From positions 248,001-312,000 of the forward strand of contig JAYWIR010000025.1 of the NCBI GenBank assembly GCA_036172245.1: a stretch of 64,000 nt of DNA. The letters run 5' to 3'. Below the pieces are notes generated by a model. The model was not told the DNA's origin. It did not search any database and saw only the letters and a program-made list of their open reading frames with translations. How positions within the stretch are numbered: the first letter of the stretch is position 1; each line of letters begins with the position of its first letter. Origin of the DNA: Raillietiella orientalis (lineage: Eukaryota). A program made the position numbers and the translations under genes. Of the stretch, positions 1-64,000 are shown piece after piece.

Positions 1-470
1 CGAGTCCCAAGCTGCATTCCGTCCTCTGCTGCATCCTCAGCGATGTGAAAGGCTGGAATCCTCTCAGCTTGTGGAATCGCACCATTTCCTCCAGATCCGT
101 TTTTCTCCCCTCTCCCCTCACTCGTAAGTACTTCGGGCATTTCTTGGCAAGGAAGTCTTTCGCTTTTAGCTACTTCGCAAGAAGAGCTCGCATTTGGTGG
201 CTCTTTAACCAATGTTGCTGCAAGGATGAGTGGCTTGCAATTCTCTTTTTCTGCTCCTGAAGATTCTGGGGATACATTATTGAGAAAACTTACCGAAAAT
301 GTGGGTTCCTCCTTTGCACCGATTTCCCGATTTTTCGGCCTGGGATATTGGCCGGGATCACAATTACGGCCTTCCAATGCCGTGGGATTAGGGACGATTG
401 GAAAATACCGCTGAATTCCTTCCAGAAGAAGGACGTTGTCTTTTCCTTGAATGAAGTTCATCGATCTTTT
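1..470 (-). mobile_element. RFE fragment, N-half (open frame runs off the window edge)
   Basis: Minus frame open for ~156 codons; MNFIQGKDNVLLLEGIQRYFP aligns with CRRIQGEEFILRMEPLFP (40855-41364 ORF) and DWIHGQDAASSWE (~56600). Confidence 0.45.
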
Positions 471-743
471 TCTAATGGAAAAGTAAGAAGGTGATTATGG
501 AAAAGTGAATACCAAAAGCATCGAATCGTTATGGGAATCGCAGAGGAACCGCGCACGGGAACGTACGCACGTTTGATGAATGAAAGTGACATGCACTCAG
601 TTCATCCTATCGGTATAAAAGGCTCTCCTGTCTAAGGTCAGCTTTGCACGCTCCTAGGCTTCATAAGGTTCCGCCGTCGCCCTTTGTCACTCTGTCAGGG
701 GAAAGAAATTTAATTCAGAAGTGTGGTGAAAGGTGCTGTTGGT

Positions 744-768
744 AAAAAAAAAAAAAAAAAAAAAAAAA
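744..768. repeat. poly(A) tract, 25 nt
   Basis: Direct reading. Confidence 0.95.
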
Positions 769-779
769 GGGAACTGCTC

Positions 780-1420
780 GGTAGGTTTGCTTTTTGCACC
801 TACCGAGATCGTGATCTTTTCCGAAGCATCGCTGACGCATGTCATTGAAGAAAGTTCAGTGTGACAACGATAAGCCTTGAAAAGAGAGAGGGACAAGGGA
901 GCCGTGCAGTGATTATCCGTGACCTTCACAGTTTCTCCTGCGGTGATCATGGCTGAAGGAAAAACGGAGACATCCGCCCAACAGATGAGGCCCCTATGAC
1001 TCGTACCACTTAGAGTGCTTGGGTCAAAGCGTTTCATTCGAGACAACAAACCGCTGCTCCACGTTCACGATAAGCCTCATGTCGTACATTCGGATCTAGC
1101 AGACGAATCTTCCACATCCCGCAGATGTTTTTTTGTCATGTCTTCACCAGTGCTGTTGATTTTAATGACAACTTGTGAGCTGTTTCTTTGTCTGCCAAGA
1201 TGTGTGCCGACAGAGCAAGGAGGCAGTCTTGTTTTGAAACTGGTTGTTCAACAACACATAGTTCATTTTGCCACTCTGAGCCACAACTTCTTTTCCCAGT
1301 TCAAATCCTTTCCAGATTCCCGCAGTTTCCCCTTCACTGTTCCGATTGGAACTTCGAAACAGTTATCTTTCTGTGTGCAAAGATGAGAAAGCAGAGCACC
1401 TTCTTTTTCTAGTAGTTTGA
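780..1420 (-). mobile_element. RFE fragment, C-half
   Basis: RGLICWADVSVFPS matches family motif KG[IL]LRW[AS][ED][VL]; multiple stops. Confidence 0.35.
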
Positions 1421-1940
1421 TTCATTTCTCTCAGAATGGGCATCCGGTGACCACGGCTCATTTCTTTCGTGCATCCTCGTTAAGTCTCAGCTGGACAACG
1501 CCTAGATGTACGTGAGACACGAGCGTATGAGCTCCCTTTGCATTCCGACCTCATTTCTTTTGAACTGACGTTCTTTGTTTCGGTGTAAATCAGAGGATAA
1601 TAACAAGTGGGTGATGCTGGCCATCAAGTGTTCTTTTCTCTTGGCCGGCTAGGAAGAGCGATAGGTGCAGATGTGCCTTCTTTCCTTCTAGTCCAGGGGA
1701 CGTGTCCCGAATGTATGTGTTTGTTTGCGGATTCCCTCTGTTGCCATTCTCGGGAGCCATCCACTTGCTCATCCTGTCTTTAAAGCGTTCCTTATCTGAT
1801 TCCTAAGGAGCATTACGTCGAAGAACACCTGGATTAAATCGCGCTGATGCTCCGGAAACCATTTCGTATCTTGGTCGTGCTTTGATCTTCTCCGCAATGT
1901 ATCCGGATTCACTTCACCATTTTCTCTAAGAACACAGAGG

Positions 1941-2019
1941 CTCTTCGGTTATCGGGATGCAACCCGATAACCGAAGAGTCAGGGTCCCCCAAGATCCATT
2001 CTGGTCTTACTGGATCTTG
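1941..2019. repeat. Two adjacent hairpins (16-bp and 9-bp perfect stems)
   Basis: CTCTTCGGTTATCGGG-atgcaa-CCCGATAACCGAAGAG (1941-1978); CAAGATCCA...TGGATCTTG (1990-2019). Confidence 0.9.
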
Positions 2020-11320: not shown

Positions 11321-11949
11321 TCATTAGGTAGGATTTCAAACAGTAATCACCAACTCAGAACCACCACCTATTGCTTTCTTCAGCTTTACCTAAGTACCTC
11401 GAAGATCTACGAACCTTCAAAACTCTTCCAAATTGTATACAAGATTGCGAGTACTACGGCAACCCTGAGGAAACTCGTGAACGCCCGCGATGCTTCTTTG
11501 CTACTCAAACTCGCTCTTGGTGCTGATGCCGCTGTCTTCTCGATTTATCGCACTTCCGTCACTTCCAGATGCGCCACGCGCAACTGAAAACTGCTGCAAT
11601 GCGTGCTAAGCAAAAGGCGATCTCTCGAGAGCACCACGAGAAAGCTGCGCACCTATCACCCTTTGCCAACGATTCCCCACATTCTGCTCGTCCAAACTGA
11701 AAAAATAATTCTTCCCTCGGGAACAAAGTAAAGCTCAGCTCTGGCTGTTTGTTTTAACCAGCTCACCTTTTAGCGTTTCATCCATCACTCTCACAGCACG
11801 TGCCAAACAAAACTTGTACCCGGTCATGCCGGGACGTTTGTTTATAAATGAATAAACCACTAGTCAGTTACAACAACAACAAAAAAAAAATTCCATTGGG
11901 AACGACCACCAACTAGCAGGTTAGCTTCTAAGGGAGTTAGGAGTGGGAG

Positions 11950-14480
11950 GGCGGAACAATGAATGAAGTAAAAAGAGAGGGAGGGTAGGAATAGGGTCTT
12001 TGGTGCAGTACGTTTCTTCGTTCCTGAAACCAGCTCTGTATAGGGGCAATTCACTGATGGCTTCTTCTTGCAGGTGCGACCACCTCGTACCTGTCCTCAT
12101 CAAAGCGACTGCCATTCGGATGGCCGCCCTTCGCTGCATCACGAAACAGACTGTGAAGATGGCGCGGATTCAGCGGATCCTTGCGATCACGGTGCTTTCC
12201 GTGAAAAATTGCCACAGCACGCCCTTTACGGTGTCTTCCGGGTGGAGGATCGCCGAGACGAATCTCTGCCCAGTGTCTACGAGGGCACTACAATCCAACA
12301 AGATGTGCGGGAACCATCGCCTCCACACCGGGAACAGTTCGAGAAGATATCCGAAAACCGGGTGTCGACGTTGGTTGGTTGCACAGGAATTCCCAATTCC
12401 CAATCAAACAGCAAAACATCCCGTCTCCACCGTAGAGGTAGCACCGTGGTGCCAACACACAGGGAAGGGACCAAAAGTTCTTCGGGAGCACATCGAGCAA
12501 GCCACTCTATGGGAGGAGACCCTTTGCTCGGGTACCAGGAGTGGCGGTGTTCACCAGCTCACTCATCTGGTAGTCGTCAAGGAGTTTCTCAGCTCCTTGC
12601 AGGACAACTCATACCCCATCGGTTGGCTGCTGTCATCGTTTGTCTTCAGGGTAGACACCGCTGCGACAAGGGATGTGATGGCTACTCGGGAGCACCGAGT
12701 CCAGTCCTGCGGGATATCTCCCAGAAGTTCGGCAACGAACGAAGCTCCGCTGAGGGCACTTCCAGAGTGGGAACGCATGACTCCAGTGCCTCCTGCCGCT
12801 CAGACCTTCCAGTTTTGGGGACAGCAGGAGATCCAAGGATGACATTTCAACAATGAGGACCAGGGGAAAGCCTCATCCCTCCATCTTGTTTAGGCAACTC
12901 AGACGCAACGAGAAAAGTCCCTCGCTTCCAGCGCAACTTCGAAGGCTGTTTCGCTCCAGAACACACCAGAGAAAAGTTCACAATTTTCCACGAAGGATCA
13001 AAGGTCGGAACTGCACCTGTAGTCTGATCTTCTGGATGTCAGGATGTCCGGCTCCACCAAGCATTTCAGACGGATTCGGGACCTTGCAGGGTTTTCCTGA
13101 GGAGGCACTTAGCCCGGATCTTAACAGAATAAAGGGGCAGGCGAACCAAAAATCAGGGACAGAGGAGGGGGAGGATAGCAAAAGTATTTTAGACGAAGAC
13201 CGGCTTCGGTAAGAGGAACCTGCCATCAAGGAACTGGCCGAGGGCCATCGCAGCCTTAGACTGAGACGAGACAACAGACTGGTGGACTGTTGGGAAAGAA
13301 GCATTGGGGAGCCTTGAAGCTCCGAGTCCGTCTCAAGGACATTGCTTGGCCAGACAGATGCCGGATGCGGCATCTTGACTTTGAAGAGGATGTAGCTGCA
13401 GCTCCATTTCCGAGGACTCGTCCCCATAGAGAGAGCATGGAACCAGCAGTGGTGTCCCCGCTCGCCACATTTTGCTGCGAGAGGCCGATTTCGAGGGACC
13501 AAAGCCATTTCTTTCTCTCAATAGGGAATGGATGAGACTCTTGAGGTTTCCTCTGAAGCAGCTCGCCTCTCTGATGAAATCCAACCAGTGGATCTCCTGC
13601 TGCCCTGTGAAGTTGAACTCCTGGAGGCAGGGAATCTGTGAATACTTGAGCTCGGTTGACCAGCGCCAGCCCTAAAGATCTCGTTCCTGTTCAGCGGTTC
13701 GGCAGGATCGCCTTGCAAAGAATCGTCGAGGAGACGATTAAGTGGAATCGTGCATCCGCCCACACATTTAGCCGCAGCTCTGTCTTCCCTATGGGAAAGC
13801 AACAGCAATTGCCTACCGGCGAGTTGGGAGTTCTGCACCATAGCGGGAGTGGGAAAACTCCTAGGTGGCTACTTCCCCCTTCCAAGAGGGACTCCCTGCC
13901 GATGGTCTGAAACATTGAGTGCACCGCCGGAAGAACTTTGTGTCCTTCTCCCGTAATTGAACTCCACTGCATTTCCCATCCGGTGGCAACAAGACATGGT
14001 ACTCCTCTTGGAATCTCCTGTGTAACAAACGCGTGCACCACGTAACTAGGAAGAGCGTTTCTGCAAAGTGTGCCAGGTACGGGGAGATGGAATCGCTCCT
14101 TCACCTGCTGATGAACTGCGGGCGTCATCCGTACATTGTGGAAGAGGCTGGATTCGACTCTTGTCTACCCGGAAGATACGCCGATTGATCTGCCGCGCCG
14201 CTTCTCCACGCGAGAGGGCCTCTCGTCTGGCGCCGTGATCGCGACTTTTTCTGCGTTCGCGGCATCCTCACGGCCCAGTACTTTTGAAGCTGCACCAGCG
14301 GCAACGAGAGGCTGCCTGCACCGCTATGACCTACCTGAAGAAAGCATGCAGGTGGTCATGTCTGAAACCGGAAATCAGCAGGGAGATCACCAACATCGCA
14401 AGAAGGATTTTGAAGAGACAGAAATCCCGGTGTCCCCATCTCCACTTTGTTTTTTGAAGTTTTATTTTTGCATTAAAATG
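11950..14480 (+). mobile_element. RFE near-complete unit 1: pseudogenised long ORF forming a ~2.5 kb imperfect foldback
   Basis: Contains the 280-aa ORF 12000-12842 (N-half) and frameshifted C-half blocks (PLKQLASLMKSNQWISCCP, THLAAALSSLWESNSNCLPASWEF, QREAACTAMTYLKKACRWSCL); arms are complementary with coordinate sums 26401-26438. Confidence 0.75.
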
Positions 14481-14699
14481 AACAGCTCGGAGAAAGCGGG
14501 TGAAGAGCCTTTTGAAGGCGAGCCAACCGCGATTCTGCAACGGGGAAGTCGCCCAATGGAACACAAAGGTATCTAAAGTACCTACATGTGGAGCCCCCAG
14601 GTGGATCTAGTCGGCCTACCCCTCCCACGATGCACCCAGAAAAAGAGCTGGAGGGAGAGATTGAACTTTCGGAACCAAGTGAGTATGCCCAAGATACAG

Positions 14700-19250: not shown

Positions 19251-19912
19251 TGACCACTTCTGACCTGTTGAGAAAAATGGATGACCAGTCTTTTGACTTA
19301 AGATATGAGGCGGAAAAGAGAGTGCGAGATACTAGTGCAGAGAAGTCAATGCCTGCTGGAAAGCCAGTGGATCAGGGCTTGCCCGAATGAAGGAATCTGA
19401 AGAAGCGGATGGTGAGAAATCAGGCGCTGTCGCGAGGCGACCCATCTGCGGAGACCTGAAAGTCCATGTGGTCCTGTTTAACTCTCACTCTTTCTCTCTC
19501 CACACGCGAGAAGTGAGGTCGCATGCACTGCAAACTGAACTGAAAAAGGAAGACCGGTGGTACTTTTACGTGAACCGAAGAACCTGAGCTCTGTAGATTC
19601 GCCTCGGAGTTGCCGAGTTCCGAATTGCCATGGTTACTGTCTCCAGTTGCGACTGGGAGCGCGAGGCTCGCGGTCACTCAAATGCTCAGCGGGGGAATCG
19701 AAAGGGCACGCACGAATCAGAGAATATAAGTAAATTCAAGAACTGAAGCGACCCTATAAGAGCACGCAAATTATTGATTCGCACGCATGGATCGCGACCA
19801 GCTTCCGCCACACGCTCAAACATTTGCAGCGTGTGTGCCAAACACGTCGGTTACTGCTGCTGGATCCTGCTGCATCCTCATTCGGGTTTCTAGCGATGGG
19901 TTCCCTGCTGTC

Positions 19913-20850
19913 AAAATGATGCTGCTAAAAAACGGATGCCGAAACTTGCGCGCTGATTCATACGAGATGCGCACATATGAATGCTTCAGACAGATGCTTC
20001 AGACGGTTGGCTGGAATAAATTACACTTCATTTTTTCAGTGAGCGGAAGAATTCGGACCATCGGCCACCGCGAGGAAGTTTTGATTCCCTTAGGAGGAAT
20101 CGCGCGATCTAGGACCAGGAATCTTGGCCTGAGGGTCCTGGAAATGTTTCGACGGAGGGGGAAGGGAAAAAGGTCTGACTTGTTTTCGAGGACCTGAGCT
20201 GGAATGGTGCGCGACTGCTGTGGCAGGAGGCGTCTCGCCGCTCGCGAAAAGCCGCTTTTTTGAAGGGCTCTTGGGGTTGTCATATCAAGGCCGTCGCGAG
20301 AGGCTCCCACACGCGTCAGAGGGTTGGAGGGCAGCGCAACCCACAGGAACGTGCGGAAAGGATTCCACGTCTCCCCCCACACTTGGGGCATCTGAGGACC
20401 ACGCCCTCTTGTCGGTTTCCTGTCCGACCATGCCGGCGCGCTTCGGCGACGAGTTGCCATTTCCTTTCTTTTTCCTCTGATTCGAAAGCAAAGTTGGCAA
20501 AGTTGCCACCGGCTAGCGATGCGTTTGCTGATGCAGTTCAATAGGACTTCTCGCGCAGAATCAGAAGTGGTCCGAGATCTGCAAACGCCTGCCCCCCTAG
20601 GAGAAAAAAAAATTCAGCATCCTGCTGCCTGTTATGCTCGGTGGGTTTGTCGACTCGCGTTTACTTCGGACATGACACTTGAAACAGAACCTGAAGAGCT
20701 TGATGACCTACGTGTGATGGATGCTTGAATGTTTTCCATGCCTCCTGAAAATGATGCTACTAAGAAACGGATGCGGCAACTTGCGCGTTGATTGATACGA
20801 GATGCGCATACATGAAATCAAATGCTTCAGACGGTTGACTGGAATAAATT
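19913..20850 (+). repeat. ~110-bp imperfect direct repeats (19913-20022 and 20748-20850)
   Basis: AAAATGATGCT..AAACGGATGC..AACTTGCGCG..ATACGAGATGCGCA..ATGCTTCAGACGGTTG.CTGGAATAAATT present twice. Confidence 0.9.
20050..20560 (-). mobile_element. RFE fragment, C-half, between the direct repeats
   Basis: ASRWQLCQLCFRIRGKRKEM aligns with LAKWEVSCEIARKKKQL; DMTTPRALQK..LFPFPLRR aligns with DDASPRTQAK..LFPIIWKR. Confidence 0.55.
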
Positions 20851-35820: not shown

Positions 35821-35939
35821 TTTCCTTCGTGTTCCAAGAAAGCTTCCCCTTAAAATTCAGACTATTCACACTTTCAAAAACTCACTACTAATCTAGTTCT
35901 AATGTCGGAAGAATAGAAAACATTGACAATATCCCGCGG

Positions 35940-42200: not shown

Positions 42201-45200
42201 CACTTGCAACCACGCTCAACACAATCCAACAAAGTGGAAACAGCGATGGCCTTGCGAAATGGGAAGTATCCTGCGAGATTGCAAGAAAAAAGAAGCAGCT
42301 GGGATGCTGGACGGCGCGTCAACTGGCCGACGCATGCACCCCCGCTGCCCTCTCCAAAGGAATTCTTCGCTGGGCAGAGGTCCTGGACATTCCTGCTGAA
42401 GAGGCAGGAATACCCCCAGTTTGTGTGGACAGCTCCACGCTTCTCCTGAAGTGGCAGGACTCGGCACTGCAGTTGTTGCACTGAGGTAGTATAGCCCGGA
42501 CTGTGGCAGACGCGGAGAAAGGGAAACCTTCCCGCACCTGCTGTTGGATTGTATTACTCTCCTCAGCAGTCGGGAACGCTTCGCTGCGGCCCCCCACCCC
42601 CGATGGACAACCGCAGGGAGATTTTGCGGAGCCTATCCGCGCGCAACTGGATGTCGCCTGCAGTTTTCTTGGCAGCTCTCGTGAGATCGTAGCTGCGAGA
42701 AGCGCGCCGAAAGAGGTCAGTCAAACGATGAGGTCATCGCAATCGTCTGCTCCTTCATGAGGAAGGCGACAAGATGACCGCACTTCTGGCAACAAAAGAA
42801 GGAATTTTCCAGCATCCTCCAGAGGATGCTGAGGACACCACGAAGAAATCTGTGATCCCTTCCTTTCCCCCCTAAGAAGGAGAACGAGCTCGAGGCATCC
42901 TGAGGCAGGAAATGGGCTGCGACTGGAGCCCAGGCGGCCTCAAGACCGCAAAGGCGAGCGAGCAGGGTGCACAGCGAACCACTCCGAGCTTCCACTTCGG
43001 GAGGAGGCCGACTACGGAAAGGGTCGACCATCCCTAGGAGACAACACCCACGCCTTTCGGCGGTAGAAGGCTCGAGAACCGAATCGCGTTCACCGAATCC
43101 TCAGGGTAAGGGAACGTTTTCTGAAGAAAGCACGAGAGAGCCACCTGAGCCGCCACCACCACCAGCAGTCCTCCCCTTAGCAGCATGAACCGTCGGAACT
43201 TACAGACAAGTTGTGCGCTGTCACGCGGCCCCTGGCATCTCCAGGATTGAAGAAAGCGGTGCGCGTTATCCACAAGACGCGCGTCGCAGGAGGGTTGGCG
43301 CAGAACTTGACGGAGAAGGTCACGGTGCTGCCTGCAATGACAGAGAACCTCCTGCTGCCGGACGCGATGGTCGGCATGCCTGAAAATCTCCAGGGTGAAG
43401 CCGGATGACTTTGAGGTTCGCGACGGGTGGCAGATACCTTCTGGGTCAGTCCGCGCATCCTTGCCTGACCCGTCGGTCAGAGGGAGGCACTTGTACCTTC
43501 CCGAACCAGTGCGCAGCACTTTGTCTAGGTGCAGGTACTCTCCCGAGTGGACCAGCTCCCAGGTCCCGTGCTGGTTTTCCTTGAGCCAGCAGGAAGAAGG
43601 TGCATTTCCGGACCCGCAGCTCAGCAACGCGGTCTCGTCGTCTCCGGTCACCCGCAACGACTGCGCGGGGACGTTGCTTTCGTCATCGAGAGCTGAGAAA
43701 CGCAGTCGTGTGAGGTAGCACGAGCGCGCGCGCACGCACACGCACGCACACACGCACGAGAGAAACGCGCTGCGGAAGTCTCCCAGGATCCCAGCGGGAT
43801 CGATGCCTTCCCCAAATGGTCCTCGGCGCCGATTTTAGGGGCCGCTTGGGGAGATGGAAGGGGAGAGTCACCGCAGGAACGGAAGCGAGAGGGGAGGTGG
43901 GAGCGCCGCGGCTCGAGTTTCTCCTGGAAAGGGTTCGATGCCCAGGAGCCACTCGGGTTCCCGATCATCGAGGAAGCGACATGGACGTCGGAGCGATGGG
44001 ACTCTATAAAGCGGAGGATAGTTTTCCACCCCTCCACCGTTCCTTCCTTTCCTACTCTTCGGGGACTCTTTCCGGAAAGGCAGGAACAAGAGAGGGAACC
44101 CGGTCATCCTTCTCCCTCCCGGAGGAGGAATGACGCGGCGTGTTACTTTCGGTGTCGAGCAGGTTCGTCGACTCCTGGGACGCGTCCCTTTCAAGGGCAG
44201 AATGCTGGTCTGCCCGCCACGCTTTTTTTTTTAGTTTTCCCCCGCTGGCAAAACCGAGGAACGATGAGAATGGAACAACGATTCTGACCTCCCCTTGCGT
44301 TCTTTCCCATCCCAGGATCCGCTCTGCACCCTGAGGGAAAGCGTGTGAGCGGGCCGACGGGCGTCACTCCCTGCCTGCCTTCATCCGTCATCCCGGAGGC
44401 GTGCGGAGGCCGCGACTCCTAGGAGTCCCGAAGCTCTCGGGGTCTTTCGGGTAAGCTGGAGGAGGTCAGGGCGGGTGCACTTGAGAGAGGCGCCGAGCAG
44501 TGCTGCGGAAGAATCCCTGCCGCCGAACCCATCCTCTCGTGTGATGCGGGCCCGGCGGAAAAGGGAGGGAGGGGGAGCAGCGACTCCCTGCGTCAGCGCA
44601 GCCTCCCGCCCGCGAGAGGAACGGCCGCCCGTACCGGGCTTTCCCTGCCCCTCGGAGGAAGGAGTTCGACCCCATAGGAAGAGGGCGGAAAAACCGCTCG
44701 CGCGTCAAGGGATGCATGGGGCGCGCGTAGTAGCGGCGGAGCGCGCGTGACCTTCCCGCCGCGTCGCGTGCACCGCCCGCAGGAGGCCCAGAGGGGCAAT
44801 TCGACCTCGTTCGGTCGAGTCCCGTCCGATGACGGTATAATTGCCCGGAAAAGTGCAGCCGGGAGAGTGTGAATGCGCCGCACGCATCCATCCATCCGGC
44901 GCGAGTGGTGCATGCGTGCACGCAAGCTGCGCTCCCTCATCCTTTCGTTCCTCCCTCCCTCCTTCTGGGAGGAGTAAGAGAGGAAAACGAAGGAAGGGAA
45001 AGGGGGGGAGAGTGAGAGAGGATCAGAGGACTTTAGCGACCCCCGCGACGATTCGCCTCCAGCGCACGCGCAGGGTTTCCAGGCACAGCGCGCGATCCAG
45101 ACCACAGCAAGCAGGCGTGCAAATACATACGTTTCACGTTGAGAAAGTACCCAAAGGACGTGAAGTCTCCGAAACGGTGGGAAGTGAAGCATCTGTACCA

Positions 45201-48200
45201 GCCGCTGTCGTTGACGCTGATGCTGCTGAAGTTCAGCACCCCTGCTGCCGCCGGCTGTGTGGCCTTCACACCAACGTCATCTGCAAGCACACGAGGTTAA
45301 GTGACCTGCGGTCCCCATAGAAGCTGGGGCAGGCCTCCTACACGCTTGGGCAAGAGTCGGAGCTCCGCGGGCAGGTCGCTCGGGATGAGGCGTAGCTTCC
45401 CGATTCCCGGGAGGGCAGCTCCAGCGAGGATCCAGGAGCAGGCCCAAAACCGCCCCCCTCCACCAGGGGAATCCCGGGTCGGGGAGGGAAGGCATCCGGG
45501 ATGACGATATTCACGAGCACGAGGATCTCCCAAGAATGAGCGGATTCCCTCGGTGGAAGCCACACGGGAACGAACCCCAAATCAAGCGGAGGGTTGAATG
45601 AGAGAGAGAGTTGGGATCCCACTCCCCACAGACCGAAGGCGGGAACAAGAAGTTTCTGTCCTGAGCCCTCGGGAGGCGGACCAGTCGCTGCGGATTCCGG
45701 ACAGGAAACCGCGCGCTCAAAACTCCTCTCAGAAAGATGGAACGCCCTTTTCTGCCCTCTCCCGGCAACTATCCGAAGCGACTGATCGCGAAGTGGTACC
45801 GGGAGCTCCGGGAACGCCCTTTGGCATCCGGTCCCATAGCTTCCGTACCGTTCAACGAGCAGGTTCTCCTTGAGGGCAAGCGAGGGACCCCTCCGAGCGA
45901 CGGGTGCTGCTTCCTCCTTTGTGACCTGCCGTGATCCGCCGCCGCGTGCGTCCTTGCCTTACCTTTGAACCACACGGGAGTGCTGGCTGGATTCGCATTG
46001 ACGCTGCACTTCAGGAGCACCGACATTCCCTCGCGCAATGGGTAGCCGAAGTCAGGGACGCGGCTCATGACGAACTCGGGCTCGTCTGGAAAGGAAAGGT
46101 CGTCTCCTGAGAAAGATCGCTGCTCTCCGGGCAGCAGCGCGCGGCAGGCGAGGCGGCGGCAGGAGGCGCGCGCCCACTCGGAAGAAGTGAAGGGTTGACG
46201 GCGGCTCGACGGACGGCAGGCTGAGGAAACCGGGGAAGAGGGGCGCGGAGGACAGCTGCCGCATCTGCGGACGGGAAGTCGGTTCCGTCTCCCCTTTCCA
46301 CATCCCCACCCTTTCCTGGAGGGAGATAACTCCCTGAGAAATCGTCGCTTACGGTTGCTGGAACGCGCCCCCCGGAAACCTCGGTTCCCGGAAGGCACGA
46401 CGTGCCTCGGGAGGCTTCTGACCCGGCAGAACCTCCAGACCCGCGGTTGCGTGGGGCAACATTGCTCACATCCCCTTCCTCTGCCATCACGCTGGCCTCC
46501 GAAGAGGGAGGTGCGTGCGGCACCTTCTGCGACACCCGCACGAAAGCGAACGAAATTCCCGCTTGCGCTCGCAAGGGGAGTGATTCGGTAGCGGGGGACC
46601 TTTTCTGGAGCACAACTCCAGAGCTAGCGCCTCGGTGACGTATCTTCCCCCGAGAATCGCGATGTCTACTCATGAAGGAAGAGAGGACAGGGACCGACCG
46701 ATCCCATGGACTTTCCAGCTACCCCTGGAAATCCGCATTCCTTTTTTTTCCTAAGGAGCCTGGAAGGAGGAGGAGGAAAGACTCATCGCTGCTCCCACTG
46801 TTTCCGGGAGACCAGGTGGACGACGGGGAAGATGGGAATCTTTCAGGTGGCCACTTCTCTCCTCGGGACTGGTGCTCGTACCACCGCAGTCGTCGTCACT
46901 GTGGTAACTTGATGTTCTTGAGCTGCCTCGGGAAATGAGCCAGGGGTTCCCCCAAGGACAGGAGGCAGTGGCCGCCGGAGGTCTGGGAGCTGCCGATGGC
47001 CGGCCTCCATGCGGGATGCACACGTCCGTGCCGCTGGGCCTGCCAGCTAGCTCAGCGAGTACGGCTCTTTGGGCAGAACAGCTGGTCGAGAGCAAACGGG
47101 AGATCCCTCTTCAAGGTGAGGCGAGGAACCCGGGTGACCCCTCCCCGTCCCGGAACCCGACCTTCCCTGGGTACGTTTCCCAGGGACAGCAGGAGTCGCG
47201 TTCTCTTGCGGTTTCCGTAGTGTCGGGAAGACACTGGAGCGCCCTTTCTCCCCCTCCGTGGGGAGCAGAAAGACTTCCCTGCGGATGGAAGCGGGGGACT
47301 CGCTCCCCCCCACACGACCACTCCGAGCAGTTTCCGGAGGGGGGAATGGAAGGAGGATACGGTGCGAGTCCCACTTGTGTGGGCTGGGGCTCTCCACGCA
47401 GCCTTGGGGGGGGGGGGAAGGGGGGGGGAGGCAGGAACTCACATTCGACGTTGAGGGAGACGGTCGCGTTGGCATCCGCGTCTCCTTCCAGGGCCAGGTG
47501 GGCCACCGAGCAGACGACCTGCTTCCGGTGGTGCGCCCTCGTCGCCTCGAAAGAGACACAGCTTTTCATCGAGTACGCCCGCAGGTCGTCAAGGTACTCG
47601 GACCGGGTGACGCTGGCGTTGGTCACGTTGGCGTCGCCCACGAACCACTGCACCCTGGAAGGCACGGGGCTGCTGCCGTTCACGTGGCACTGCAAAGACA
47701 AAGTGTGCTTCTCACGGATGGTGAAAGAGTGGGAGCCTCGCAGCTCCTTCCCGTTGTGGGTGATGTAAGGGAGGGAAGGGAGACCTGGAAGAAGAAAAAG
47801 CAAAAAAAAAAAACAGAGTTTACCAGGAACGTCTCCAAGGAAACGCCCGCGCGCGACCCACCTCCCCCCCCCCGCCTTCCGCTGCGACGCCACGCTACTC
47901 CCTCGGAGGTCCCCCCGCCGCAACAGCAGCCACCCTTCCCACTCGCGAGCATCCCGGAAGCAGTAGCAGCACAGGAGATCTCAGAGTGGACAGCCCCCCA
48001 AGGCGCGTCCGGATGATCCCTGAAGACGGCATGCAAGGAAGTCGGGTCGCCCTTTTCCTCTCAGGCAAGTTGGGAGGAGGAAGAGAAGGCAGCATCCTTT
48101 CCAAGCAGCCTTGCTTCTTTCTGAGAGCCGTCTCCGGGACGCTCGCGAAGGGACGGGAAGGAGGTACAGCTCCCCACAGGGAGGGAGGAGGGGCGCTCCA

Positions 48201-51200: not shown

Positions 51201-52358
51201 CAACCCTGGGTCGCTTCTGTTGTCTGGCTGAAGAGAACGAAGAGGAGGAGGAAGGAAGGGGGAAATGGAAGTTATGAACAGGAGAAGGAGGATACGAGGA
51301 AGAGGAAAAAGAAGAGGAAAGGAGGATGACCAGGAGGAAGAAGATGAAGGGAGGAGAAGGAAGAGGAAAACAGGAAGGCGAAGAAGAAGAGGATGACAAG
51401 GAGAAAAAGAAGTGGAGGAAAGGAGGAAGGCGTTCCTTCCTCGCACGGAAACTTTGGAAAGCTTTCTCCGGTTGGCAGCACGAGTGGTCCTACTTTCCAG
51501 GAGTCTCATGGGCTCCGAGTTGGCCGAGAGGGGTTGAGTTCACGTCCACAGTTGGCAGCTCCCTTCCCCTCATCAGGAGTTCCTCCGGGGAGTCGCTTTC
51601 AGGGGTACCAGCCCAGGCGATTCAATCTTAGCTTTCTAGCCCCTCGGGCGTGCGCGAAAACCACCGCGCTCCCCTGGAAGCGCCACCGAGGCACGGCCGT
51701 TGCTGTCGTCGAGTGAAGGGTTCCTCCCCCCTATAGGCGGTTGCGCGAGGCTCCCCACTGGAGGCTTGACCTTCTTCCCTTATCTAGAAAATACTTCCGC
51801 CTGCGGCATTTGCCCTTACGCAACTCTTCGAAAGGCAGAAAGGGCATCCCTGTCGGCGCGAGAGCTCGCGAAGGCGCGGGGCGGACGCGGAACGTAGCAG
51901 AGGCTCCCCGGAACGCTGCTGCGGCTGTGGGGTGTGGGTCCTGGAGCGCACGCACGTACCGGCAACGATGAGCCACACGGGCTTGGAGGTGCGCGTGCTG
52001 CCGTCGGAGCTCTGCTGCTGGCACTGCCAGATCCCGTTGTCGGAGGAGTTGACCCGCCGGATGCTGATGTCGTTGTACCGCCTTCCTGGGTGCGCCTGCT
52101 TCCTCCAGAAGTGCCTGGTCTGACCTGTGCTCAGGACCTGCTTCCCGTTGTGCAGCCAGACCAGGCGGCCACTCTCGCGCGCCAAGTCGCACTCCAGAAC
52201 GACATCGCTGTGCTGCTTGACGACCACGTGCTTCAGCTCAGAGGCTTTCAAGCCGCCGCGGGTGTCCGCTCCCAAATGCACCAGCTCGGGCAACTGGCCG
52301 AGGTGGTGCGCGGTCCTGCCGCCTCCAGTTCTAACCGAGGATTCCATCGAACTCGCAT
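39015..52358 (-). CDS. fas: Five-Ig-domain, predicted GPI-anchored cell-surface protein, faint sausage/teiresias-like; 5'-partial, 7 exons, ~567 aa
   Basis: Seven phase-compatible GT-AG exons encoding Ig folds (C..W..DxGxY/WxC); motifs FGYPLREG.SV.LKC.V.ANP.STP.W.KDD and FCANPP recall Drosophila faint sausage (from memory, not searched); hydrophobic C-terminus without a cytoplasmic tail. Confidence 0.7.
39985..41400 (-). mobile_element. RFE N-half in Ig-gene intron (probable donor of the 1023-bp duplication)
   Basis: 169-aa ORF 40855-41364 crosses the duplication breakpoint at 41007; NALLIPADA, LSGKRHGSRL..RRAP and HIVESCYIWVTL..LLHSIR align with unit 1. Confidence 0.7.
41570..42880 (+). mobile_element. 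RFE middle plus C-half in Ig-gene intron
   Basis: PLATTLNTIQQSGNSDGLAKWEVSCEIARKKKQLGCW..LSKGILRWAEVL..WQDSALQLLH and EVIAIVCSFMRKATR*PHF..KEFSSILQR align with the copies at 13750-14420 and 27850-28510. Confidence 0.75.
43204..43379 (-). CDS. Ig gene exon: first half of Ig5
   Basis: GMPTI..VTFSVKFCANPPATRVLW; donor TCT|gtaagt, phase 0. Confidence 0.88.
43438..43692 (-). CDS. Ig gene exon: Ig4 (3' boundary uncertain, see findings)
   Basis: gtttctcag| acceptor; ALLSC..CW..GSGRYKC; donor G|gtatct. Confidence 0.8.
45131..45280 (-). CDS. Ig gene exon: second half of Ig3
   Basis: ttgcag| acceptor, |gtatgt donor, 150 nt, phase 1-1; LNFSSISVNDSGWYRC. Confidence 0.92.
45963..46085 (-). CDS. Ig gene exon: first half of Ig3
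   Basis: tttccag| acceptor, |gtaagg donor, 123 nt; YEPEF..FGYPLREGMSVLLKCSVNANP..W. Confidence 0.92.
46700..47250 (+). mobile_element. RFE fragment, N-half (intronic)
   Basis: HCFRE..SLLG and STALWAEQLVES match family blocks. Confidence 0.3.
47443..47784 (-). CDS. Ig gene exon: Ig2 (C2/CD80-like)
   Basis: cttccag| acceptor, |gtgagt donor, 342 nt, phase 1-1; LSLQC..SSP..VQW..VVCSVAH..LNVE. Confidence 0.93.
48795..48970 (-). repeat. ~110-bp dispersed repeat plus CTT/CCT-rich tail, copy A (probably an RFE 3' end)
   Basis: Similar to 51424-51534 (CCTCGC.CG.AACTTTGGAAAG.TT..CCGG..GGCAGCACGAG.GGT..CTT.CCA.GAGTCTC). Confidence 0.8.
49300..50600 (-). mobile_element. RFE fragments: C-half (~49800-50600) followed by an N-half piece (~49300-49800)
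   Basis: VLCAVAG..RALKTLFSRCERLPGAPS..LWNAAL aligns with FSCTVAG..RTQAKGLLRWSDLRGSAS..CWNTPL; LECRVVTGSATQEV aligns with FVFRVDTAATRDV. Confidence 0.5.
51230..51534 (-). repeat. ~110-bp dispersed repeat plus long CTT/CCT microsatellite tail, copy B
   Basis: Matches 48859-48970; GAA/GGA-rich tract at 51230-51425 on plus. Confidence 0.8.
51960..52358 (-). CDS. Ig gene exon: Ig1 (V-like)
   Basis: cttccag| acceptor, G|gtacgt donor, 399 nt, phase 1-1; VVLEC..LVWLHNG..SDNGIWQCQ..VWLIVA. Confidence 0.92.
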
Positions 52359-52649
52359 CTGGAAGGAGGAAGGGAAGGACGAAGAGGTGAATGTTTGCAT
52401 GCCGAAGGGGCCGTGACCACGCCCCCCCCCCCCCGGCATTTACCCGTCGCGCAAGCGGCAAGCGGCGCCATCTCTTGACGTCACCCGCTGGTAACAGAGT
52501 GGGCGGAGCTCCTGTTCGAGATGGGAGCCCGTAAAAGGGGTTCCCATCTCGAACCCTACTCCCTACCCGTAAAAAGGGTATAGAGTGGAGCGTGCAGCAT
52601 GGCTAAGTCAGTGGAAGCGATGGTCCTCCCCCCTTGTATCGGTTCAGCT

Positions 52650-53399: not shown

Positions 53400-54100
53400 A
53401 GCCTCCGTGCGAGAGACCAGATGGGGGAGATCTAAGTCGAATCGCGAGGTTTCCCTCTTTCCCGACTCTTCCCCTTCGTCCAGGAGGAAACGAGATCCCT
53501 CCGTGAAGAGCAGCCGGAAGCCCCCCGCCGCAACATCAAGAGCAAGATAAATCCTCCCACGACACGCATTCCAGGGGATCCTGCAAACAGGAAGGTGTAT
53601 CTGAAGTCCAGAGTCGAGGAGGCAGGAGACTCTTCCCAAACGCGACAGGAATCGAGACCCATTCCAATTAGGATCGCAGTAATGACGGCGGACACAGTGG
53701 CGGAAGCCGCACTTCCCCCTAATGGACGGTGGGGCTTCAGCCAACTCGCCCGTGCCGAGCAGTCGCCCAAAGAAAAGGTTCTTCGGCAGCCTCTGAGGAG
53801 TTCTCACATCAGAGTTCACCCTCCTTAGCCTCTTCGTCTGATCCAGCCCTCGAGACGGCGCGCGAGTAGCATCCTCTCCCTAGACACCGCCGCATCCTGT
53901 CCGTGGATCCAATCGGTCCTCCTCGACCTGTCGTGGCTGCTCTCAGCCACCGACGAGACTCCCCAAGATCCGCGAGAACCTCTGGACGACCGATTCCCGT
54001 CGTAGAGGCTGCTGCAGGAAGTCTCCATAGCTTGGCCGTCAGCTAACCTCGCGCGCGATACCTCGAGGCGAAGGCAAAACCTCGGACGGGGTGTTTCCCT
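53400..54100 (-). mobile_element. RFE N-terminal part, tandem to the 54500-56740 unit
   Basis: ~120-bp block 53848-53966 is very similar to 56587-56705 (WGVSSVA.SSHDR.RRTDWIHGQDAA); GFRHCVRRHYC..LGR aligns with HFRT..ILGR. Confidence 0.55.
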
Positions 54101-54499: not shown

Positions 54500-56740
54500 G
54501 CATCATAGGCTCGCAGCTTTCTTGGAATCTGATTGGCTAATGGAACCTCTTTACGGCGCTCTGCCTCTACAGAACCTCAAAGCCGTCGACCTCTCAGTGC
54601 TCCGAGCTGTCCCTGCGCTACCCAGTTTGGGTTCCTTCTTTGCATCCGGAAGGCTGCTGCCCTCTCGCTCTCGCTGGGATTGCCGTCTGTTCGTCTCCAT
54701 GGAGAGCTCTTTGCTACTCCGGCTGAAAGTTTCCTCCGTCCTCTCTGGTTACTCTGACTCCCTCTCTTCCGTTCATTTTGGTGATGAGTTGGCCTCTGTT
54801 CTCGATCAGCTACCAAAATTCAAGGGAGTCTTCGTGGCAAGCTCTACGCAAATAGCATCGTCATAGCAACGGAACCCGCAAGACGCTTTTTCGACCCTTC
54901 GACCCTTTGCTGGCGGTTCTCGGTGGAGTAAGTTCACGTCGAGCCTCTTCCTGACGGAGCTCGTCGGACATTTCGATCATTCGAGAGCTCCAGATTCGTG
55001 CACTATCCTCATCTCTTAGCTTCCTCGAGATTGCGGGGTTCTTCCCCTTTTCTTTCCTCTTTACCTCCCTGTGAGCGAGGAGCACCTTCCTCTTCCTGTT
55101 GGAGCCGGCTGAGTTTCTCCATTGTGAGAATCTGCCTCGCGGCAGTTTCCTTGCTTGTACGTGCACTGCGTTAACCAAGCATCATCTCTCCTGTGCGGTA
55201 TCTGCAGTTTCAGACGCTGAGAAACTGGGCCACCGGAGGGCTCTGCTGAAAGCTGGAATCCTCCCGGTGTGCCGAACTGAAATCGGATTCTAACGTCTCA
55301 GACCGCCTTTACTTTCACTCGCGCAGCATCCCTGTTCCCTCATCCCAGGCACCTCAATCCTTCGAGGCACATCGCATGACCCCTTGTCTTCTTGCTTCAT
55401 ACAAGGACTCTGCGAGCAAAGCTCTGGCCGAGGTCGGGGGGACGGGGGCAGAAAAACCGCTCGACCTCGTCCGGAGTCCTTTCCCAGCTTCCAAGAAGTG
55501 TAGGCTGCAAACCCCCGCCCAGATTCCTTCCTGGATTTCGGAGGACTCGAAAAGGATCTTCCAGACGAGCGGACCGGACGGCTTTGTGAAAGGAAACGAA
55601 CGCGCCCTGCCGTCGCTTCTCTCGAATGAGTGGGTGCGGCAAGTCGTCCTCCAGAGCCGGAGCACCGCCTGCTCCCAGGAAGAAGCGACCCCTGGATCTC
55701 CTGGAGAGAACCGCATCTTCTGAAACGCCGCAGGAACACTGGACAGCCTGCTCTTCTTTTCTCTCTCCTTCTCCGGGAAGGAAGCCTTTAGCCAGGACAT
55801 CACTCGAGTAGCTCGTTCGACCCCGAAGTGAACTCGGTTGAACTCATTTTGGGGTTGCGATGGGGGGGTTGAAATTGCTTGGAACTTTCGCAGCTTTTTC
55901 GGGAATATTCGGAAGCGGACGAGTGGGAAGGCCGTCCTCTTCCTGAATAACTTGAGTTCCCGCTTGCGGCCTATACGCAGACTGTGCAGCAACAGGAACC
56001 TCCGGAACAACGTGGGAAGAACGAAGATCCGGGAAGATCTTTCACACACGTGAGTAGGAGTCTCGTCTGGAAGGCGGCGCTTCCAGTAAAGAGCGCCCTC
56101 TTCTCTATCAGCAGCACCCTCTGAAGAGACAAACCGTCCGCAGGAAGGTGGAAGGACGCGCAACCGGGAACCCCGCCTCGGGACCTCCGCATGGGGCTCG
56201 ACGCGGCAATGCGCGACTCGCGCACTCTCCTCTGGCAAACAGGGTTGCCAGATGACTCTCACGGGAGTCGCCACCGCATTCTTCTCAGGGACAAAACACC
56301 TCCTTCCTAGGAGCTCCTTCATCCCTAGTCGGGCTCGGGCACGGGGAAAACGACCCCTGGGAACTTCGGTCCGGAACAGAGGTGGCGCCATCGAGCTTTC
56401 CCTTCTCCTGTTAGTGCCGTTCGTTCTCGTCCTGTTCCGGTGTGTCTTTAATCTCGCGCTGCTCAGCAGCCGAGGTCGAGTTTCCTGCTGCGGAAGACCG
56501 CAGTCCACCCTTTCGTCTCTCAGGTGCTCCTCGGCTTTCTCGGTCGGAGGACACGAATCTGGAGACACAGCATCCGTTACCATACTCCTCGAGACGGCGC
56601 GCGAGTAGCGTCCTCTCCCAAGAAGACGCTGCATCCTGTCCGTGGATCCAGTCGGTCCTCCTCAACCTGTCGTGGCTACTGTCAGCCACCGATGAGACTC
56701 CCCACGGCTGCAGGGATTTTCCAGGCCCGCGGAACACGCC
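54500..56740 (-). mobile_element. RFE unit containing the longest surviving ORF (426 aa, 55354-56634)
   Basis: Continuous N-half, middle and C-half blocks: FRT..KELLGRRCFV, ALYWKRRL, LLHSLRI, VRFRIF, RLSSVPAAFQ, RALLAESLY, RMIEMSDE..TPP, LNFGS*SR. Confidence 0.7.
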
Positions 56741-60300: not shown

Positions 60301-62279
60301 GGCGCGAAGAGGACAACAAACGTAAGCAAAACGAGGGACGGAGGTGAGGATAGTGGTGCCAGTTCTTGGCATATCCCTTCTCCTGCACTCTCTGTTGCCG
60401 ATGGACCCGCTGCAAACCACCCTCCCCATCGAGAAAGAGGAAGCGGAACTCACAGCCCCTCGTCTTCTCCTGCACACCCCTGGCTAGCACCGGACAGCCA
60501 CAGCCCTTTCGGCATCGACTCGGGTAAGGGATGAGAGAGCATCCGGAGAGGTGGGAACCTCGATGGGTACTCTTCTGCGGCGGTCCTCCGTCCGCACATC
60601 GGGGCGGCATCCGGCAGTCCAAATACGATCGAGAACGAAAAAGTCCACCCCATCCATGGTCTCCACTTCTGGGCACTCAAGAGAGAGGAACCGGAGGAGC
60701 CTCACCTATGCCCCACGCCGTTGGCACCGCGCAGAGGGCACAGAACCCGAGTTCACGAGTTGTTTTCTCTCCCTTCCACTCCCTGGATGCGCCCTCAACA
60801 CTCCCGTGGAAAGGGATCCAAGAAACCGACTTGCTCTCTAGGGACATCTCCAGACTCTCTGCGTGTCTCCTCCCCGAGGGAAAGTAGTCCATGACCCTGG
60901 TCGTCTCAGTCGGGCAAGGCATCTGCAGGAACCTCCAGCGTCGAGAGTCCGTCAAGAGAAACGTCCTACTGGTTCCTGGACCTCGAGGTGACTCCTCGTG
61001 GTCCTTAGAGAGCAGCACCAACCGCGCGGGAACCGGAAGACCGATCCATCTTGCCTCATGCTGGGACCGCTGGAGTTGCGAACGAAGTGTCTAGGCGGAA
61101 GCTGTGGCCCAGGACCATCCAAGGGCACGCCTCCCTCAGTGATGTCTTGGCAAGCCGCTGGCTTCTAAGCAGGAGGTTCAGGGGGGCCGTCCTGGAGGCG
61201 TGCCCACGACCGCCGCCTCCGCCACCCGAGTGGAGGCTCGGTCTCGGAAAGAAACAAGGGCGCCCGCTGTGGAGGAAGCGGAACTCCATTTTTTTTTTTC
61301 TTTTTACCCCGGAAACCCGCAGGTGCAAGCGTGGTCAAACATACGGCTCACTCGTCCGCGTCGCTGTTAGGCACGAGTTTTCGCTTCCTCCGGGACGAAT
61401 CTTTGCATGAGGCAAGCCACCTCAAGGGACACGCAAGTAGTATGCCGCCGTGATGCGTTCCCAGGATGTTCGCCATCGTCCCTCTTCGAGGTCTGGTAGA
61501 CATCTCCTCCTACCTCGGATACCTTCACAAAGCGACTGTCGCATCACACTGCCTCAGGAAGCCGAAAGGCGTCTCTCGTGACAGTCTGTAAACGGGAACG
61601 CTTTATTCTCCTCCTCCCTCCCTGCTCGTCTCTACCGACGCGTCTCAAAGAGCTCGCAAGTAGGCAGAGACCGTTGCCATAGCCACCATGGATCAGAACA
61701 GCAAATGCTTTTTCATAAACATCAGAAATTTGCATTTTTCCGTTCTTCTCCTTCCCTCCCCTCCCCCCAAACACCTCCAATAAAATGAAAAGTCGCTTCA
61801 ATCTCTGCAGCTGCTCAACCCGTTGGTACCAGCACCAGAAACGCCCTCAAGGCAGAGACCCAACATCCACGTGATGCCGACTCAGAAAACGCCGATCTCC
61901 TTCGATGGCTGCCTCCCGTCCTGACGACCAGTGGCACTCGAAGTGGCACTCCGTCCTTCGCATCCCGTCCCTCGCGCCGACTCCATCCTCCTCAGTCATT
62001 CTCTTCCTCGCCTTCTTTCCACGAACAGCTTCCCCGCTCTTCGGCGAATCTTCCCACCTTCGACCCGAAAGGAATGGCTAACCGCACTTTCACTCATCGC
62101 CTCTGACCCACACTTAAATCCCCCTCCCTCAGCAGATCTCCCCATCATCTTTCTCAATCAGCATCCTCGCACCAGCACTCGTCCTCGTCGCCCTTCTACA
62201 CACGATTCCCGGCTTCAAGCAACCTTCCATCCCTTCCCCAGAATCACGGGGGTCGCCCCCAAAACTGCAGCATGAGTCA

Positions 62280-62900
62280 GAGACTCGAACATCCCCTGCT
62301 ACCCCTATGCACCTATGAAGATCCTCCTGAGCATTCCACGGACAAAGGGATTCCCATCTCCACAAGCTTCTCGCTCCAGATATGCTTTCAGACGCATCAT
62401 CTTCAGATGAACTTGCGGCAGGGCAGCGGCTGACTCCCGCGTTGAATACGCGCCAACACCGCTTCCCACCTTGCCCTAGCAACGCGTTTCTGCGTCTTCC
62501 GCGAGACACTTTGTTGGCCTGAGAGTCGGTATGACCCCTCCCAACTCTGTCTCCTGGCGACATCACGCGCCCAGGATTCGCGGTTTGACTCGAGGGCGAA
62601 ACACAGCAAGCCGCTGTGCGGTGGTTTCCAGAGGATGTTGCCGTCGAAAGCCTTCGTGGGCTTCCTCATCTTCCGTCTCTTCCCCGTGAGGGGGCTCTGT
62701 CCCCTTCCCCAGATTGATCATTTCCACCCCCTTCTCCTGCCCCGTCTCCCCAAGATAGGGGTCGTCTCTTACCCTCCATACTGCTCCCTCTGGCTCCCGT
62801 TGAAAGTCGGAGTCCTACCTGGAGGAAAGACTCCAGATTTCGACTGGGAAGGCATGGCAGACGCTTCCATATCCTCCCACGATGCTGGGGGACAGCCGTC
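62280..62900 (+). mobile_element. RFE N-half
   Basis: VFRETLCWPESRYDPSQLCLLAT aligns with LWEETLCSGTRSGGVHQLTHL and FSLLAT; LIFRLFP aligns with VRFRIFP. Confidence 0.5.
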
Positions 62901-63249
62901 TGTCGGACCGCCACACCTTTAGGAAAGGCGAGAAGGCAGCCGGTCGACGGGCAACACCTCCGCACTCCCTTCCAGACGCAACGCGCCACGCGGATGATGG
63001 GGCGGAGGAACGAGAGGTAGGAAGGACGAGGGGCACTGAGCCCGCGCCAGATCAGCGAGAACAACAGCAGCTGCCCACCTGCTTCTTTCTTCCCTCGCTA
63101 GGAACGATATCGACGCCGGGAAGACGCAGCACATGACCACCTCTCCACCCCCTTTTACCACCCTCTCATTGTCCGTTTGGTCACCCCTACAGATATCTTC
63201 CACCGATGCCCAGCCGGATGAACGTCTGCGGCAAACCAACGAGAACAGC

Positions 63250-63960
63250 GTTACCCCTGGCATCCTGTCGAGCGATCCATCCACTTTTTTTCAAAAAAGT
63301 TTCTCGAAAACTTCTCTCGACCTTCACCCCTCCTCCCCATCCACTTATTTTCGAAGTCTGGCTTGGGGACAGAGCTGCTGGGGCTGCGACGAACAGTCCC
63401 GTGTTCCTTCTGGGGGGCAGTGGTTACGTGGCGGAAAAGGGCCGGTTCTCCGGAGTGCCCTATTCCCGAGGGAAGATCTCGATGGGTCCCTGTGTAGATG
63501 CTCCCCTGCTGTCTCGGTCTTTGGGTCGGCGGCGACCGGATGGTGCAGGAAGACGCGGCACTGGTTGCAGCGCGCTCCCGCGGGAGGAAACGGACCAACC
63601 CCCGACGCGGCGGGCCGAGAGCCCATGCTTTGTTATCGGGAGGGCAATCCCCTCCATCACCGACGGTTTCTCCTGGTTCACCACCCACGAGCTCATTCGG
63701 AAGACCGTTCCCGGATGCGTTTCTGGTGCCAAGGAATGGCTTCCCGCCTGAAAAAAGGACGCGTACGATGGACAGCGCTTCCCGTTTCCGAAGACAGGAG
63801 TTTCCAAGGAGACCCTCAGAGTGCCGACCTCGTGAAATTCCTTCACAGAGTACCCCCCAGGAAAGTCCCTTGCCGAAGCACCAGCGGTTGCTCCCTTTGC
63901 CGAGAGTGGAACAGGGCGGTGTTCGCACGCGCCCACACCCAGACGGATGCTGCAAGAGGC
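63250..63960 (+). mobile_element. RFE N-half/middle fragment
   Basis: PLIFEVW and GRFSGVPYSRGKI align with SFVFRVD and SRLSSVPAAFQKM. Confidence 0.35.
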
Positions 63961-64000
63961 TGAGACGACGCATCGGGAGGGGATACGAGCGATGCCGCCG

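Follow-up and report, generated by a model that had tools for sequence, protein, structure and literature searches.

The window, by which we mean the whole stretch of 64,000 nucleotides that was analysed, contains six decayed copies of one old interspersed repeat. The copies are distributed over three positions on the plus strand and three on the minus strand, all within 11.9-42.9 kb of the window, and follow one another at a spacing of ~6-8 kb. Their combined cover is ~6.0 kb, corresponding to 9% of the window.

Six copies of one repeat family

The copies are listed below in the order of their position, with envelopes and model positions as given by nhmmer for a shared model of 1519 positions.

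Copy E: 11866-13304, minus strand, model positions 2-1518; His-Cys half of the zinc motif at 12290-12310
Copy A: 13283-14519, plus strand, model positions 191-1499; zinc motif at 14069-14119, with Y replacing the second Cys
Copy F: 20162-20511, minus strand, model positions 879-1197, shorter and weaker than any other copy; His-Cys half of the zinc motif at 20336-20356
Copy B: 27194-28692, plus strand, model positions 2-1518, with E the longest copy; His-Cys half of the zinc motif at 28225-28245
Copy D: 35773-36287, minus strand, model positions 798-1380; complete zinc motif C-X2-C-X7-H-X4-C at 36070-36120, better preserved than in any other copy
Copy C: 41931-42908, plus strand, model positions 386-1482; zinc motif at 42502-42552, with R replacing the second Cys

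The same six copies have been obtained from DNA and protein profiles, from leave-one-out tests and from an all-against-all comparison of the window. The DNA profile (nhmmer, window) has given six hits, followed by a next best match at E 0.69, and every copy has been recovered when the profile was made from the remaining five (E-values of 2e-95 for E, 1.9e-84 for B, 6.4e-59 for A, 1.2e-22 for C, 1.5e-20 for D and 7.5e-8 for F), the best match outside the six reaching E 0.074. Copy F is additionally connected to copy D by pairwise nhmmer (E 1.3e-4) and blastp (E 1.07e-5). For the frame-corrected protein profile of 167 positions, which was run over all six frames of the window, all hits of at least 7.1 bits fall within the six copies; the best of the rest, at -0.6 bits, is at the level of the controls (-2.3 bits for the reversed sequence and -1.1 to -2.9 bits for three shuffles). 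When a protein HMM limited to the zinc motif was iterated, it did not extend past its four seeds, and a further repeat family has not been found by all-against-all nhmmer across the whole window. Word-based nucleotide self-comparison largely misses the family, as blastn at word size 11 has caught only one 60-nt piece common to copies C and D, whereas profile methods recover all six copies.

The family is thus much smaller than stated in a preliminary description of this DNA, in which ~30 fragments recurring every ~2 kb had been proposed and a recovery of only 3-4 copies by a profile HMM had been named as the refuting level; the six copies recovered are slightly above that level and do not reach ~30, all other profile hits being at control level. 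Among the four copies regarded there as the best, 13470-14420 (copy A), 27650-28510 and 42150-42850 (copy C) are members, and 55354-56634 has been matched by no profile, its sole repeat link being a direct repeat of 118-124 nt with 53845-53968. What has been confirmed is the picture of decayed homologous fragments of low identity on both strands, carrying stops and frameshifts; the high age of the family and its near invisibility to a word-based nucleotide self-comparison are supported as well.

The mutual DNA identity of the copies is 40.2-59.9% (K2P 0.60-1.26), the upper value being that of B and E over 1393 nt, and the repeat family is accordingly old. All copies are interrupted by stops and frameshifts; the longest in-frame, stop-free piece among them comprises 95 aa (42197-42481, copy C), and that of copy B 79 aa. 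The 5' ends are nested within the model, starting at positions 2, 2, 191, 386, 798 and 879, and the 3' ends are found at 1518, 1518, 1499, 1482, 1380 and 1197, which places four of the six within 40 positions of the model end and leaves copies D and F short of the common 3' end. Copies E and A adjoin head to head, 5' end to 5' end, at 13303/13304. Neither a poly(A) or microsatellite tail nor a target-site duplication has been seen at the copies; features as short as these would have become unrecognisable at a K2P of 0.6-1.26. Likewise, blastn self-comparison and all-against-all nhmmer have detected neither terminal inverted nor long terminal repeats at the borders of the copies, and flanking sequence common to any two copies has not been found.

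Coding trace and Cys-His motif

In one frame of the family alignment, mismatch rates at codon positions 1, 2 and 3 are 0.48, 0.418 and 0.542 (n = 1553 each, from non-independent pairs of only six sequences), and upstream of this stretch the rates are flat (0.538, 0.513 and 0.521). The codon periodicity extends over ~170 codons (alignment columns ~450-970) and ends ~300 nt before the copies end. A codon-periodic block followed by ~300 non-periodic nucleotides would be the expected remnant of an ancestor that coded for protein and carried a 3' untranslated region. The ~170-codon stretch closes with the motif C-X2-C-X7-H-X4-C, which, complete or in remains, occurs once per copy and is absent elsewhere in the window. 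The full span of the pattern is present in three copies (A, C and D) and its His-Cys half in all six; all four zinc ligands have been kept only in D, the second Cys having been lost in A and C. The pattern PH[LIV][LIVP][LIVM].C occurs five times, each time within a copy, against a mean of 0.11 (maximum 2) in 100 local shuffles, which puts the family well beyond chance.

Comparison with Pfam has pointed to the zf-RVT family (PF13966, 'zinc-binding in reverse transcriptase'), to which the ORF of copy D at 36052-36246 has been aligned over profile positions 38-80 of 85 with E 1.9e-4 and 22.5 bits, a score under the gathering cut-off of 27.5 bits. With 570 ORFs scanned, ~0.1 zf-RVT hit of this level is expected by chance, and in-frame pieces of the other five copies have remained without a match to zf-RVT at any E up to 10. 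The family therefore resembles zf-RVT and is not a certified member of PF13966. In the ESM Atlas, a protein language model resource from which named clusters only were considered, 23 of the 30 hits of copy D belong to the zf-RVT set (top score 0.95, 175 shared features) and zf-RVT is the nearest named cluster of copy C (0.86). The recognition value of 2290 is slightly under the level below which the Atlas text rates high scores as weak evidence. AlphaFold2, supplied with the copy D ORF and the family alignment, has returned a poor model (mean pLDDT 47.1, pTM 0.22).

Searches for further parts of an element and for relatives have used decayed fragments as queries in all outside comparisons. No reverse transcriptase (RT) or endonuclease domain has been hit by Pfam in all 570 stop-to-stop ORFs of at least 60 aa in the window, nor in read-through translations of the 1.7 kb upstream of copies B, D and F, and the ORFs named in the preliminary description have likewise been without Pfam hit. 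Copies of at most 1.5 kb would end downstream of the RT, and an endonuclease is not expected in such short fragments. Word-index protein searches with a zinc-motif alignment, with an in-frame alignment and with a further query that was largely out of frame have yielded no relatives; an exhaustive profile search of 1.84 billion representative proteins has given three hits, which are internally repetitive, unrelated to the motif and thus spurious. A PDB sequence search with the family profile has been empty up to E 10, and a metagenome scan with the copy D ORF has produced 589 pattern matches, none of them confirmed. Intact members of ~900 aa, as envisaged earlier, have been encountered neither in the window nor in the word-index, representative-protein profile and metagenome searches. 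As to the window in general, Rfam and tRNA scans have found nothing, the observed/expected ratio of CpG is 0.81-0.89, and its immunoglobulin exons have matched only generic IgSF proteins, so that a typical vertebrate host, at first suggested by the immunoglobulin hits, has been rejected.

Origin of the fragments

The six fragments probably descend from an old non-LTR (LINE-type) retrotransposon, of which they would be dead 3' ends truncated on the 5' side. The homology of the copies, their nested 5' ends, their presence on both strands, the codon-periodic divergence, the conserved zinc motif and the broken frames have been shown, and LINE identity, the mode of insertion and inactivity are inferred. 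Each fragment would represent the last part of ORF2, namely ~170 codons downstream of the site of the RT domain that end in a Cys-His zinc-binding motif, and would also retain ~300 nt of 3' untranslated sequence. Through target-primed reverse transcription, the RNA of the element may have been copied, starting at its 3' end, into chromosomal DNA at a nick, and an often early stop of this copying would have led to copies that tend to a common 3' end with differing start points. After insertion, neutral decay could then have lowered their mutual identity to 40-60%. In line with this, a cysteine-histidine domain is described for the C-terminus of ORF2 in L1 and the I factor, and genomic non-LTR copies are described as frequently 5' truncated through incomplete reverse transcription (review PMC2881922). 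The conserved motif and the anatomy of the copies do not favour the label of an unknown family given in the preliminary description; they indicate something already known, namely an ORF2 C-terminal portion from a non-LTR retrotransposon.

Among the nearest known counterparts are the L1/Tx1-like and the I/LOA/R1-like lineages, whose ORF2 bears a Cys-His motif of the zf-RVT type at its C-terminus. The copies share with these LINEs the Cys-His motif, here close to where a decayed coding region ends, the 3' untranslated stretch that follows, the nested truncated 5' ends, the dispersal on both strands and, for copy D, the sub-threshold zf-RVT match; they differ in that no copy includes an RT or endonuclease part and neither a poly(A) nor a simple-repeat tail can be seen, and in their C-X2-C spacing compared with the C-X3-C of mammalian L1. 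CR1-type LINEs are present in many animal genomes mostly as short 5'-truncated 3' ends, and what is left of the window family is likewise confined to 3' fragments of 0.35-1.5 kb that lack poly(A). ORF2 of CR1 is not known for such a Cys-His motif, and the octamer repeat that marks the 3' end of avian CR1 has two matches in the window against 3.26 expected, neither of them at a copy, so that an avian CR1 identity has been rejected.

It is unlikely that the fragments are of non-LINE origin, such as pieces of a host zinc-finger pseudogene or of another class of mobile element with a Cys-His motif. Such an origin would be in keeping with the missing RT, endonuclease, tail and target duplication and with a zf-RVT match that is sub-threshold and from one copy only, but the nesting of the 5' ends, together with the proximity of four of the six copies to a common 3' end, forms the pattern expected of reverse transcription started at the 3' end, and the Atlas look-up indicates zf-RVT clusters. 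The zinc knuckles found in Gag of retroviruses and LTR retrotransposons (Pfam zf-CCHC) are also CCHC-type motifs, with a spacing of C-X2-C-X4-H-X4-C, whereas the window motif has seven residues rather than four between the second Cys and the His. The generic zf-CCHC model has not been hit, the nearest match being a chance-level one of a copy B piece to the Lin-28A-like zf-CCHC_2 (E 0.4), and the copies are without terminal inverted or long terminal repeats, no direct repeats having been found to flank them in the test for an LTR element.

Segmental duplication of one non-mobile region, in place of transposition, is highly improbable: the head-to-head junction of E and A does resemble an inverted duplication, but E is nearer to the distant B (59.9%) than to the adjoining A (52.7%), the two arms begin at different model positions (2 and 191), no two copies have flanks in common, and the copies lie on both strands with differing truncation points. 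Twin priming has been ruled out as the source of this junction, as both arms are the same part of the element. There is equally little to recommend a very abundant family whose ~30 fragments in 64 kb would mostly be too diverged for profiles. With K2P values of up to 1.26, still older copies could fall under detection, and nearly all of the six are missed by blastn; against this stand the next best DNA-profile hit at E 0.69, the next best protein-profile hit at the level of reversed and shuffled controls (-0.6 bits), leave-one-out runs without another hit below E 0.07, the lack of any other family in all-against-all nhmmer, a signature motif without orphan occurrence, and the failure in all tests of the fourth of the copies earlier regarded as best.

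Consequences for annotation and dating

With the claimed density corrected from ~30 to six copies, the significance of the probable LINE-type fragments lies mostly in annotation; broken LINE tail ends are ordinary genomic debris. Assigned to an established kind of element, the fragments call for repeat masking rather than annotation as hypothetical genes, and they illustrate that repeats of such age, lost to word-based nucleotide search, are within reach of profile methods. That the six copies are the remains of an undescribed LINE lineage, which would be a main genome component if the share of 9% holds genome-wide, appears rather doubtful. If it were abundant throughout the genome, the family would assist in dating an ancient burst of retrotransposition in the lineage of this animal.

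Copy number and detection of the repeat family

A real, decayed interspersed repeat family has been found on both strands of the window, where it comprises six copies, and leave-one-out profiles, run as a control against circularity, have regained all six. The copies are listed with the part of the 1519-position DNA model of the repeat unit that each has kept.

Copies of the repeat family in the window (model span; leave-one-out E)
11866-13304, minus strand: copy E (2-1518 of 1519; 2e-95)
13283-14519, plus strand: copy A (191-1499 of 1519; 6.4e-59)
20162-20511, minus strand: copy F (879-1197 of 1519; 7.5e-8)
27194-28692, plus strand: copy B (2-1518 of 1519; 1.9e-84)
35773-36287, minus strand: copy D (798-1380 of 1519; 1.5e-20)
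41931-42908, plus strand: copy C (386-1482 of 1519; 1.2e-22)

The nhmmer DNA profile has recovered these copies and no others in the window (next match E 0.69), and outside them the leave-one-out profiles have given no match under E 0.07. A frame-corrected protein profile of 167 positions, searched over all six frames read through as the preliminary description had proposed, has recovered segments of all six copies at 7.1 to 176.6 bits, the next best score elsewhere in the window being -0.6 bits, with -2.3 for a reversed control and -1.1 to -2.9 for three local shuffles. All five occurrences of the motif PH[LIV][LIVP][LIVM].C in the window fall inside copies (shuffle mean 0.11), and all-against-all nhmmer of the whole window, cut into 4-kb chunks, has yielded, besides the repeat family and small palindromes, only an inverted repeat of 1 kb and a pair of short direct repeats at separate sites. 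The roughly 30 fragments recurring about every 2 kb that had been described are thus reduced to six copies at 6-8 kb spacing, together about 6.0 kb or 9% of the window. Three of the four copies previously regarded as best (13470-14420, 27650-28510 and 42150-42850) have been retained in the family, and the fourth, 55354-56634, lies outside it. Both the observation and its interpretation have been upheld in part.

The postulated old age is reflected in DNA identities of 40.2-59.9% among the copies (K2P 0.60-1.26), and the family indeed evades word-based nucleotide search: among six repeat pairs from a blastn self-comparison (word size 11, E 1e-5), only one involves it, through a single 60-nt match (36070-36129 vs 42552-42493). 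An all-against-all blastp of 1449 ORFs of at least 30 aa has connected pieces at 11.9-14.2, 20.3, 27.2-28.5, 36.1 and 42.1-42.7 kb. Compared pairwise, these regions resemble each other in collinear order, frequently in two or more frames simultaneously, which marks homology at the DNA level. In single-sequence nhmmer searches with flanks, the two longest copies have grown to about 1.45-1.5 kb. Copies E and A adjoin head to head by their 5' ends at 13303/13304; E begins at model position 2 but A at 191, and E resembles the remote copy B more closely than its neighbour A.

Genes and other repeats in the window

The window DNA is eukaryotic, and its CpG observed/expected ratios, 0.81 (1-40 kb) and 0.89 (40-64 kb), are high on both sides of a step in GC content (43-52% vs 58-62.5%). 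The step, from about 45% to about 60%, is located at ~40-41 kb, close to where a 1026-nt unit in its second copy has its outer end, and the high GC persists up to the window end. A Pfam scan of 570 stop-to-stop ORFs of at least 60 aa (219 of at least 100 aa, 351 of 60-99 aa) has returned immunoglobulin-type domains on three ORFs, one match to zf-RVT (PF13966, zinc-binding in reverse transcriptase) and three weak, isolated matches below cut-off (Ski2_N, PRR18, DUF5568).

Other features of the window
39018-39386, 47114-47980 and 51787-52602, all minus strand: immunoglobulin-superfamily exons (I-set, C1-set/C2-set_2, Ig_3; Pfam)
32037-33062 and 39982-41007, opposite orientation: 1026-nt unit, 99.8% identical, 6.9 kb apart (blastn)
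53845-53968 and 56584-56707: direct repeat, ~120 nt, 91% identity (blastn, nhmmer)
19898-20029 and 20731-20857: direct repeat, ~110-130 nt, 83% identity (blastn, nhmmer)

Against the PDB, the immunoglobulin exons have matched generic IgSF proteins only (top SIRP-alpha, E 1.6e-7), and they probably belong to a single gene, or to several, for IgSF receptors or adhesion proteins. Taken with the CpG ratios, this makes the host an animal with little CpG depletion. The 1026-nt unit, which ends in an imperfect terminal inverted repeat of ~15 nt and has revealed neither a Pfam domain nor a clear target-site duplication, probably represents a non-autonomous TIR transposon of young age; the pair could also have arisen by inverted duplication in recent times or as an artefact of assembly. 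On both sides of its first copy lies a direct repeat of ~65 nt (31956-32022 and 33054-33122, 80% identical), whose divergence greatly exceeds that between the copies of the unit and which is hence not a fresh target duplication. At 55354-56661 (minus strand), a stop-free frame of 435 codons has an arginine-rich, non-protein-like translation and no Pfam match; by a rough estimate it exceeds chance length at 60% GC, and it may be an unrecognised gene read in antisense. The frame does not belong to the repeat family.

Coding trace and zinc motif

Reading frames are broken in all six copies, the longest in-frame stop-free piece being 95 aa (42197-42481, copy C). In column coordinates of the DNA alignment, one frame nevertheless shows clear residue conservation over ~170 codons, with mismatch rates of 0.48/0.418/0.542 at codon positions 1/2/3 (n=1553 each, from non-independent pairs of six sequences) and flat rates of 0.538/0.513/0.521 upstream. 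In sliding windows, the periodicity extends over columns ~450-970 and stops ~300 columns short of the copy ends, consistent with an ancestor that encoded a protein and carried a 3' untranslated region downstream. At the end of the coding part stands a C-X2-C-X7-H-X4-C motif, intact in copy D (36070-36120) and whole in span in copies A (14069-14119) and C (42502-42552), where the second Cys is gone; its His-Cys half is kept in all six. The motif of mammalian L1 is spaced C-X3-C, unlike the C-X2-C observed here.

The copy D ORF (36052-36246, minus strand) matches zf-RVT over profile positions 38-80 of 85 (E 1.9e-4) at 22.5 bits, under the curated cut-off of 27.5 bits, and no such match has been obtained in the other five copies even allowing E up to 10. 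Among named ESM Atlas clusters only, 23 of its 30 matches belong to the zf-RVT set (top score 0.95, 175 shared features, recognition value just under the Atlas threshold), and zf-RVT is the nearest named cluster for copy C (0.86); the Atlas itself words these matches as leads. The predicted structure of the copy D ORF (pLDDT 47.1) is too low in confidence for use. Relatives have been found neither in word-index protein searches (one query largely in the wrong frame) nor in a PDB search and metagenome scan, and a profile search run exhaustively over 1.84 billion representative proteins has returned three matches, all repetitive and unrelated. As all queries were short, decayed fragments, this says little on novelty.

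Origin of the fragments

The 5' ends of the copies are nested in the model, the 3' ends lie within 40 positions of the model end in four of six, and both orientations occur. In a review of non-LTR retrotransposons (PMC2881922), genomic copies are described as often 5' truncated by incomplete reverse transcription, and ORF2 of L1 and the I factor as carrying a C-terminal cysteine-histidine domain. Counted against a LINE-type origin are the early 3' stop of copies D and F and two negative results: the window has revealed neither a reverse transcriptase nor an endonuclease domain, even when the 1.7 kb upstream of B, D and F were translated through stops, and neither a 3' tail nor a target-site duplication is visible at the copies. 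As regards the clade, the 3' octamer of avian CR1 is absent from the copy ends.

Based on the nested 5' ends, the mostly common 3' ends, both orientations and the decayed C-terminal coding part with its 3' UTR, we consider it likely that the six fragments are defunct 3' portions of an old LINE-type element that integrated through target-primed reverse transcription. Such an element would have inserted by this route, incomplete reverse transcription would have left 5'-truncated copies, and the fragments, now dead, would represent the decayed C-terminal coding part followed by the 3' UTR. From its zinc motif, zf-RVT resemblance and LINE-like anatomy, the family, previously termed unknown, appears to be of a known kind.
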